From: Octopus vulgaris | Lineage: Eukaryota | Assembly: GCA_951406725.2 (NCBI GenBank) | Contig: OX597814.1 | Span: 12,462,001-12,526,000, forward strand | Direction: 5' to 3' | DNA length: 64,000 nt | Part shown: positions 52,783 through 54,011 of the stretch, piece by piece | How positions within the stretch are numbered: the first letter of the stretch is position 1 | Layout of the letters: every line of letters starts with the position of its first letter | Notes under the pieces: model-generated | The model's database searches: none | The model's input: only the letters and a program-made list of their open reading frames with translations | What the model was told of the DNA's origin: nothing | Translations under genes and position numbers: made by a program

Positions 52783-52871
<89 letters not shown>

Positions 52872-53053
52872 AGGGCTTAGTAAAATAAATTACTTTGCCG
52901 CATACTGAACTCATTAGAAATAGCAGCTAAAAAAAACTTCTTTAAAAACTATCTCCAATACTTAAAGAAAACCTCTCTCATATAGTGTTTGCTCAACTCA
53001 ACTCACGGAAGTATGGGGGTAGAGACATTAAAAAATCAAATGCAAAGGTTATT

Positions 53054-53106
53054 TGAGAACGTACGTTTCAAGATTAGTCAAAATCGACACTTCTATCATC
53101 AGCTCA
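53054..53106 (-). ncRNA. Type-I hammerhead ribozyme (inverted copy)
   Basis: Reverse complement of 53657-53709. Confidence 0.72.
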
Positions 53107-53656
53107 GAACTCCTGGTTTGGATTTGAAAACACTGAAAGCGGGAGCATACCCTTTCGGCCTGCCATCGCCTCTGAAGATCTGCTCAAAACTAACAGTGCT
53201 AGCAAATTCAAATATGCAAGCGAAGAATTTCTGCTCTCCTTTCCACCAGCGTGGGTTAAAATCAGCAAACACTATGCTTTTTTCGGTAAAATCCGAGGCA
53301 TTATAAAGAGAGAGATGAATTATAATTTCAACAATTGAGGGTAAAATTAATTAATTAATCAATTTCACCAAGTATTCAGTACTGAATACTTGGTGAAATT
53401 GATTAATTAATTAATTTTACCCTCAATTGTTGAAATTATAATTCATCTCTCTCTTTATAATGCCTCGGATTTTACCGAAAAAAGCATAGTGTTTGCTGAT
53501 TTTAACCCACGCTGGTGGAAAGGGAGAGCAGAAATTCTTCGCTTGCATATTTGAATTTGCTAGCACTGTTAGTTTTGAGCAGATCTTCAGAGGCGATGGC
53601 AGGCCGAAAGGGTATGCTCCCGCTTTCAGTGTTTTCAAATCCAAACCAGGGAGTTC

Positions 53657-53709
53657 TGAGCTGATGATAGAAGTGTCGATTTTGACTAATCTTGAAACGT
53701 ACGTTCTCA
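53657..53709 (+). ncRNA. Type-I hammerhead ribozyme
   Basis: tgag-CTGATGA-t aga agt gtc gatttt gac taa tct t-GAAA-cgtacg-TT-ctca; palindromic stem III. Confidence 0.75.
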
Positions 53710-54011
53710 AATAACCTTTGCATTTGATTTTTTAATGTCTCTACCCCCATACTTCCGTGAGTTGAGTTGAGCAAACACTATATGAGAGAGGTTTTCTTTA
53801 AGTATTGGAGATAGTTTTTAAAAAGGTTTTTTTAGCTGCTATTTCTAATGAGTTCAGTATGCGGCAAAGTAATTTATTTTACTAAGCCCTTTTATATAAT
53901 GTAATAATTTGAATTCGCCTTAAATGGTCCCTTTGTATACTGAATACTTGGTGAAATTGATTAATTAATTAATTTTACCCTCAATTGTTGAAAATATATA
54001 TATATATATAT

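Follow-up and report, generated by a model that had tools for sequence, protein, structure and literature searches.

Insertions of Penelope-like elements have been described as partial tandems with an adjacent inverted 5'-truncated copy, a tail of 30–40 bp, hammerhead motifs and (TA)n targets (PMC8557442). Palindromes occur at the head-to-head junctions of Penelope copies, and self-priming was proposed for them (PMC3846280). A Penelope-like protein was found to nick both strands at AT-rich sites, to initiate internally and to use uncut RNA as a template (PMC11167929). In R2-mediated insertions, snap-back junctions have been defined (PMC11204384). Animal retrozymes have been defined and tied to Penelope-like ends (PMC7229834; bioRxiv 10.64898/2026.07.22.740005); cleavage by the axolotl ribozyme HHR_Amex2 is weak in the monomer and improves in the dimer (PMC7229834), and 235 hammerheads were counted in a squid genome (PMC6962438). 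At the RNA level, editing of Penelope repeats is massive in lizard and X. tropicalis, self-folding or palindromic repeats are strong ADAR substrates, and the proportion of loci that form near-perfect dsRNA is exceptionally high in octopus (PMC5625713, PMC10636886).

Here, we describe a palindromic insertion of about 1 kb in a 64-kb stretch of Octopus vulgaris DNA (hereafter the window). The insertion itself is ordinary, representing a known Penelope-like architecture on a non-autonomous, retrozyme-like unit. It is, at the same time, a clean young copy. Because its three breakpoints are all readable and the family has many copies, the origin of Penelope-like inverted 5' copies becomes testable.

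Anatomy of the insertion

BLAST analysis of the region against the window demonstrated a gapless palindrome at 52864–53898 with 99.0% identity over 1038 nt. It has no spacer and is centered at 53380|53381, as claimed in an earlier note on this DNA, which had described a near-perfect spacerless inverted repeat. The arms differ at four of 516 aligned columns: two differences are single-G indels inside G runs (53522 and 53649), and the other two, an indel and a substitution, fall within the A/G/T run 53822–53826. According to the earlier note, the right arm also runs on to the end of a 558-bp unit, then repeats 56 bp of it and reaches (TA)n. This period was recovered by BLAST against the window, where 53380–53440 recurs at 53938–53998 with 60 of 61 positions identical. 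The features of the insertion are listed in Table 1.

Table 1. Features of the palindromic insertion and its target tracts (positions in the window; strand "." where neither applies)
Feature	Position	Strand	Basis
Left target tract, TA-rich microsatellite	52514..52866	.	
Left arm, inverted copy of 53381-53898	52864..53380	-	BLAST, arm alignment
Mirror hammerhead motif of the left arm; core at 53102, N17 at 53058	53046..53113	-	Descriptor
Zero-spacer palindrome center	53375..53386	.	Arms share TA at 53380-53381
One full 558-bp non-coding unit, GC 0.35, ribozyme-sense strand	53381..53938	+	BLAST, contigs
Imperfect palindrome of 30 nt close to the unit's 5' boundary; 13-bp hairpin containing two G.U pairs	53392..53421	+	
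Type I hammerhead motif	53650..53717	+	Descriptor match, predicted
Sole TATATA of the unit; end of the left arm, which enters the (TA)n target here	53893..53898	+	
6-bp palindrome GTATAC at the head-to-tail joint; weak cDNA-strand hairpin	53935..53940	+	Sequence
56-bp partial tandem or tail repeating 53380-53435; putative reverse-transcription start at 53993	53938..53993	+	
Right target tract (TA)n; a minus-strand LINE adjoins it with its 3' end	53994..54012	.	

The element is asymmetric, with an extension at one end only: its outer ends differ by 95 nt, and the inverted arm spans 93% of the unit. TA-rich tracts flank it on either side, and no target-site duplication was readable inside (TA)n at either end. 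Five TATA-like clusters are present in the unit (53436, 53455, 53779, 53893, and 53936). The right end of the insertion lies just before the first of them, the left end lies within the fourth, and the palindrome center falls within the fifth, inside GTATAC. The turn of the palindrome sits at the equivalent of the GTATAC joint with 2 nt fewer. The 30-nt imperfect palindrome near the 5' boundary recurs at 53950–53979.

By BLAST, the 558-bp unit showed no similarity to the 482-bp unit at 51641–52323, in agreement with the unrelatedness noted earlier, and no further similarity anywhere in the 64-kb window. A Pfam search with the three plus-strand frames of the unit returned zero families, and no ORF for RT or GIY-YIG was found. 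The 1-kb palindrome is real in this assembly, from which alone its center is known, and it is very likely real in the animal as well.

Hammerhead motifs and predicted RNA folding

Hammerheads had been claimed on opposite strands of the two arms, and motif cores were indeed located at 53661 on the plus strand and at 53102 on the minus strand. The plus-strand core comprises 53661–53667 and 53694–53697, with U as N17 at 53705. Helix I has 4 bp plus an extension, U.U stands at the base of helix II, and helix III has 2 bp closed by a palindromic GTAC loop. Judged by its U.U, 2-bp helix III and U17, the predicted hammerhead is a weak form. A type I descriptor, written after the motif had been seen and permitting U.U at the base of helix II, gave four matches in the window (52007+, 53661+, 53102−, and 35468−) and none in 60 block-shuffled windows; this result shows the non-randomness of the motif, not ribozyme activity. 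An Rfam search yielded no hammerhead at the gathering or E-value level; its matches were to generic miRNA hairpin models, with scores under the gathering cutoff. When the isolated hammerhead was folded freely, the ribozyme fold did not result; this fold was predicted at −3.1 kcal/mol versus −10.4 kcal/mol for the lowest-energy fold, approximately 7 kcal/mol apart (z +1.2).

The locus has one hammerhead per strand and 1.1 direct units. Two consecutive direct hammerheads, by which the preprint defines an "active" retrozyme, are absent at the locus. This says that the present copy is not a source copy, and it leaves the retrozyme status of the family unaffected. When folded as a circle, the unit had a predicted z of −4.7 on the ribozyme strand versus −1.6 on the opposite strand; the corresponding predictions were +1.5 for a LINE control and −7.7 for the 482-bp unit. 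Such strong predicted folding of a sense-strand circle fits a retrozyme-like RNA. The whole element, if transcribed, is predicted to fold at −931 kcal/mol with 96% of its bases paired. The hammerhead would be fully sequestered in this structure, consistent with the earlier suggestion that read-through RNA would mask the ribozyme.

Other repeats in the window

Four more palindromes or inverted heads of the same build lie beside TA tracts in the window. Another hammerhead palindrome, also head to head and beside a TA tract, was located at 35329–35676; it is unrelated in sequence, has a 2-nt loop and four differences in 163 columns, and carries a hammerhead core in both arms, the motif of the right arm being one base short in helix II. 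Two aged palindromes beside TA tracts, at 18142–18325 (spacer 0) and 19595–19882 (spacer 25), differ at 11 of 88 and 17 of 121 columns, respectively, and neither gave a match to the hammerhead descriptor. The element at 51605–52323 consists of the 482-bp unit and 201 bp of repeat; its hammerhead, at 52007 (+), is of the canonical minimal form. A looped turn with an overlap of 2 nt joins it to a short inverted head, which ends at TATATA.

A frameshifted stretch at 57040–57940 (−) resembles, by eye, the GIY-YIG end of a Penelope-like ORF; a Pfam search of 57501–57940 gave no GIY-YIG match. It is followed by a hammerhead-like core at 57083, which was negative with the descriptor. A broken LINE with an APE endonuclease (PF14529, PF03372) and RT (PF00078) occupies 54013–56980 (−), and its 3' end adjoins the right TA tract. 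At 59349–60385, a 184-bp unit derived from a SINE is repeated 5.5 times in tandem, and the SINE is also dispersed at 31317, 35963, 40190, 57924, and elsewhere. Remnants of non-LTR retrotransposons with RT-like frames lie beside (AAT)n tracts at 530–2470 (+), 11253–12047, and 41079–41852. Finally, a dispersed 174-bp repeat has two copies at 35075 and 45444 (89%), with the core spacing of a hammerhead and no helix I by the descriptor.

Occurrence of the repeat family in public contigs

Parts of the unit were found in 20 of the 24 listed runs, covering nine studies and three organism codes, none of the listed runs being recorded as RNA. The earlier note had proposed to look for further genomic copies, a 558-bp period and variable inversion points; further copies, the period and at least one other inversion point were supported. 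Contigs were aligned on 53361–53937 in four of the 20 runs (3985, 9825, 2745, and 202 contigs); these numbers are distinct contigs, thousands per DNA run, and not copy number, full dimers or arrays being beyond contig reach. All 29 bins of this interval were covered, and most contigs were 90–99% or more alike. The many distinct contigs therefore suggest many divergent copies, and the unit belongs to a large family of repeats that are non-coding, 558 bp long and hammerhead-bearing. Run X1 may be the source sample and hence not independent.

The head-to-tail joint (53934/5 back to 53380) was present in all four runs aligned, which supports the 558-bp period. An opposite-strand joint, 53587/53684, was observed in one contig each of X2 (organism A) and X7 (organism B), giving at least one other inversion point. 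This joint may represent an old shared inverted copy or a recurrent turn point. Short-read contigs are expected to break at the center of such a palindrome. Depth in the first bin (53361–53380) was considered as proof of the center and rejected, since the head-to-tail joint shares base 53380. A metagenome scan with a 24-nt motif returned zero matches. Of the 18 family-variable sites checked, 17 are identical between the two arms and one is an indel, and both arms therefore come from one template lineage.

Origin of the palindrome

The insertion is likely a non-autonomous Penelope-like element of the non-LTR retrozyme type. We hold with good confidence that it was made by Penelope-type insertion, either by fold-back or from two primers, and fold-back of the new DNA during insertion of the non-autonomous unit is the probable source of the palindrome. 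The steps that we infer from the observed anatomy are as follows. A Penelope-like RT/GIY-YIG protein, supplied in trans, would nick the (TA)n tract and prime on uncut multimeric or circular RNA of the unit at 53993, beside a TTATAA motif. It would copy 614 nt, going once around the unit and 56 nt further, whereupon the cDNA end would turn on itself at the GTATAC micro-palindrome with a loss of 2 nt. DNA-templated synthesis along the cDNA would continue for approximately 518 nt up to the unit's only TATATA, and this end would anneal to the upstream (TA)n, resulting in a head-to-head palindrome. Read-through RNA would then form a 515-bp duplex hiding the ribozyme. The copy would likely be a dead end, a potential substrate of ADAR or Dicer rather than a source copy.

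The earlier note stated that Penelope insertions often carry inverted 5'-truncated copies, and the architecture observed here matches that description (PMC8557442). Its proposal of fold-back during reverse transcription stands as the best reading and, as a process deduced from the product, is not new, since self-priming was proposed earlier for Penelope palindromes (PMC3846280). Several points count against this reading: the center is known from the present assembly alone, a center without a spacer requires an assumed loss of 2 nt from the hairpin tip, the 56-nt repeat and the 95-nt difference between the ends compare with a tail of 30–40 nt in the papers, the hammerhead has U at N17 and is not the lowest-energy fold, and no target-site duplication is readable inside (TA)n. 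A partner element was sought by BLAST within the window, where the unit did not resemble the probable Penelope remnant (57040–57940).

A possible though less probable origin is that a dimeric Penelope-like protein primed on both target strands with two RNAs from the same source, the two products being joined via the shared TA. For a purified Penelope-like protein, cutting and extension of both strands have been described, with starts at two internal sites, and a dimer is predicted (PMC11167929). Both outer ends of the insertion lie at TATA-like motifs, a 2-bp TA overlap yields the observed center exactly with zero bases lost, and the arms differ in the A/G run 53822–53826, which is a family-variable patch. 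However, priming from both strands would demand that the two cDNA stops be identical to the base, and the agreement of the arms at 17 of 18 variable sites would require both RNAs to come from one source locus. The spacers of the neighboring elements (2, 25, and about 40 nt) also look like loops, which favors fold-back.

An assembly artefact, in which fold-back chimeric reads or a misjoin would have turned one 614-bp insertion into a palindrome, is very improbable. Chimeric reads do give a spacer of zero and 99% identity, two of the arm mismatches are homopolymer indels, and the center of this copy is absent from the public contig evidence. Against this, the flanks differ between the two sides, the left arm stops next to a TA tract, at the one TATATA that the unit contains, and the architecture has already been published. 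The two aged palindromes of like build in the window cannot be chimeras with so many differing columns, and the process is therefore biological even if one locus should be wrong.

Slightly more improbable still is a palindrome made at the DNA level, by a fold-back DNA transposon (MITE) or by a template switch in replication or repair after insertion; long TA tracts are break-prone, and TA-targeting palindromic DNA elements exist, such as Harbinger in frog (PMC5625713), but the family appears as a head-to-tail unit in all four runs aligned rather than as a fixed palindrome with terminal inverted repeats, the element is asymmetric, bears hammerheads and folds on one strand only, and both hammerhead palindromes of the window share the head-to-head orientation.

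One-RNA twin priming, the established model for L1, would not duplicate a stretch that has already been covered. It was rejected because the inverted arm overlaps the direct arm and duplicates a stretch already present in it, unlike the product of that model.

Excess of A-to-G changes

Departures of the locus copy from the family were called by majority rule, in which at least two of runs X1, X2, and X7 differ from the locus copy (40 of 43 variant rows listed). Among the variant rows listed, the copy departs from the family majority at 16 sites. On the ribozyme strand, these comprise nine A-to-G, two T-to-C, one G-to-A, and one C-to-T change and three transversions; a further C-to-T at 53936 is outside this tally. 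With weighting by base counts, A-to-G exceeded T-to-C among the listed rows with p 0.014, a post hoc value from one copy, and three other thresholds gave p 0.008, 0.008, and 0.033. In this one copy, a 5' G was present at none of the nine A-to-G sites (p 0.11), and clustering of these sites had p 0.095 (0.035–0.43 by threshold). One site is a CpG. The derived G was paired with U in 4 of 10 cases versus 21 of 97 (p 0.18). Run X9, which may be RNA, showed two A>G among 36 places. A combined neighbor score (no 5' G plus 3' G; p 0.013–0.045) was dropped, as it conflicts with the preference of invertebrate ADARs, which favor A, not G, downstream (PMC5625713).

The derived G is present in both arms, and the changes therefore predate the turn. 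G alleles were also found in other copies, with a non-A share of 1–66% in X1 when allele shares were taken as summed contig depth, and they thus mark a subfamily, not this insertion event. Reverse transcription of edited RNA is a doubtful explanation of the A-to-G excess. A folding strand under selection would tolerate A-to-G, which leaves G.U, better than T-to-C, and selection for a G.U-tolerant RNA structure accounts equally well for the excess so far.

We also raise, as a speculation that we consider unlikely, that ADAR edits the RNA of the unit or its duplex and that the edited RNA is reverse-transcribed, which would act as a sense-strand A-to-G ratchet, with fold-back insertions as the main source of near-perfect dsRNA in a hyper-edited animal. 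Two palindromes of this build amount to 2.2% of the window. Editing of such a duplex would be a reasonable idea by analogy with the editing of Penelope in lizard and frog, and on that account it is not new. Among the open-licence titles listed for this subject, none concerned editing traces in genomic copies of retrozymes or Penelope, which does not prove their absence. An A-to-G excess across the whole family would mean that RNA editing had left a heritable mark on a retroelement lineage, and it would connect Penelope-type insertions with the supply of dsRNA in an animal that hyper-edits its RNA.

Comparison with known systems

The locus resembles endonuclease-bearing Penelope-like elements in its head-to-head inverted 5' copy and junction palindrome (PMC8557442, PMC3846280), as well as in the short palindrome near the 5' boundary, the extension at one end, the (TA)n target and the type I hammerhead. 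Unlike these elements, the unit is without RT or GIY-YIG coding sequence, its extension is 56 nt rather than 30–40 nt, and its inverted arm spans nearly the whole unit. In comparison with the edited Penelope repeats of PMC5625713 and PMC10636886, where the edits are at the RNA level, the A-to-G excess here is genomic.

With animal non-LTR retrozymes, the unit shares a non-coding, low-GC tandem organization, a type I hammerhead motif and a predicted self-paired circle. Its motif is also similar to that of axolotl HHR_Amex2, which likewise has a 2-bp helix III with a tetraloop and U.U at the base of helix II (PMC7229834). The unit length of 558 bp exceeds the 150–450 bp of the retrozymes in PMC7229834 and is within the 51–972 bp of the preprint. 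The locus differs from the "active" retrozymes of the preprint in its 1.1 direct units lacking two consecutive direct hammerheads. In the retrozyme account of PMC7229834, the word "inverted" does not occur.

The proposed turn would resemble the snap-back 5' junctions of R2-mediated insertions, in which the 3' end of the cDNA primes on the cDNA and then joins the upstream target (PMC11204384). That reaction belongs to a different enzyme in an engineered system, where it is a minority outcome, whereas the corresponding structure occurs several times within the 64 kb analyzed here.
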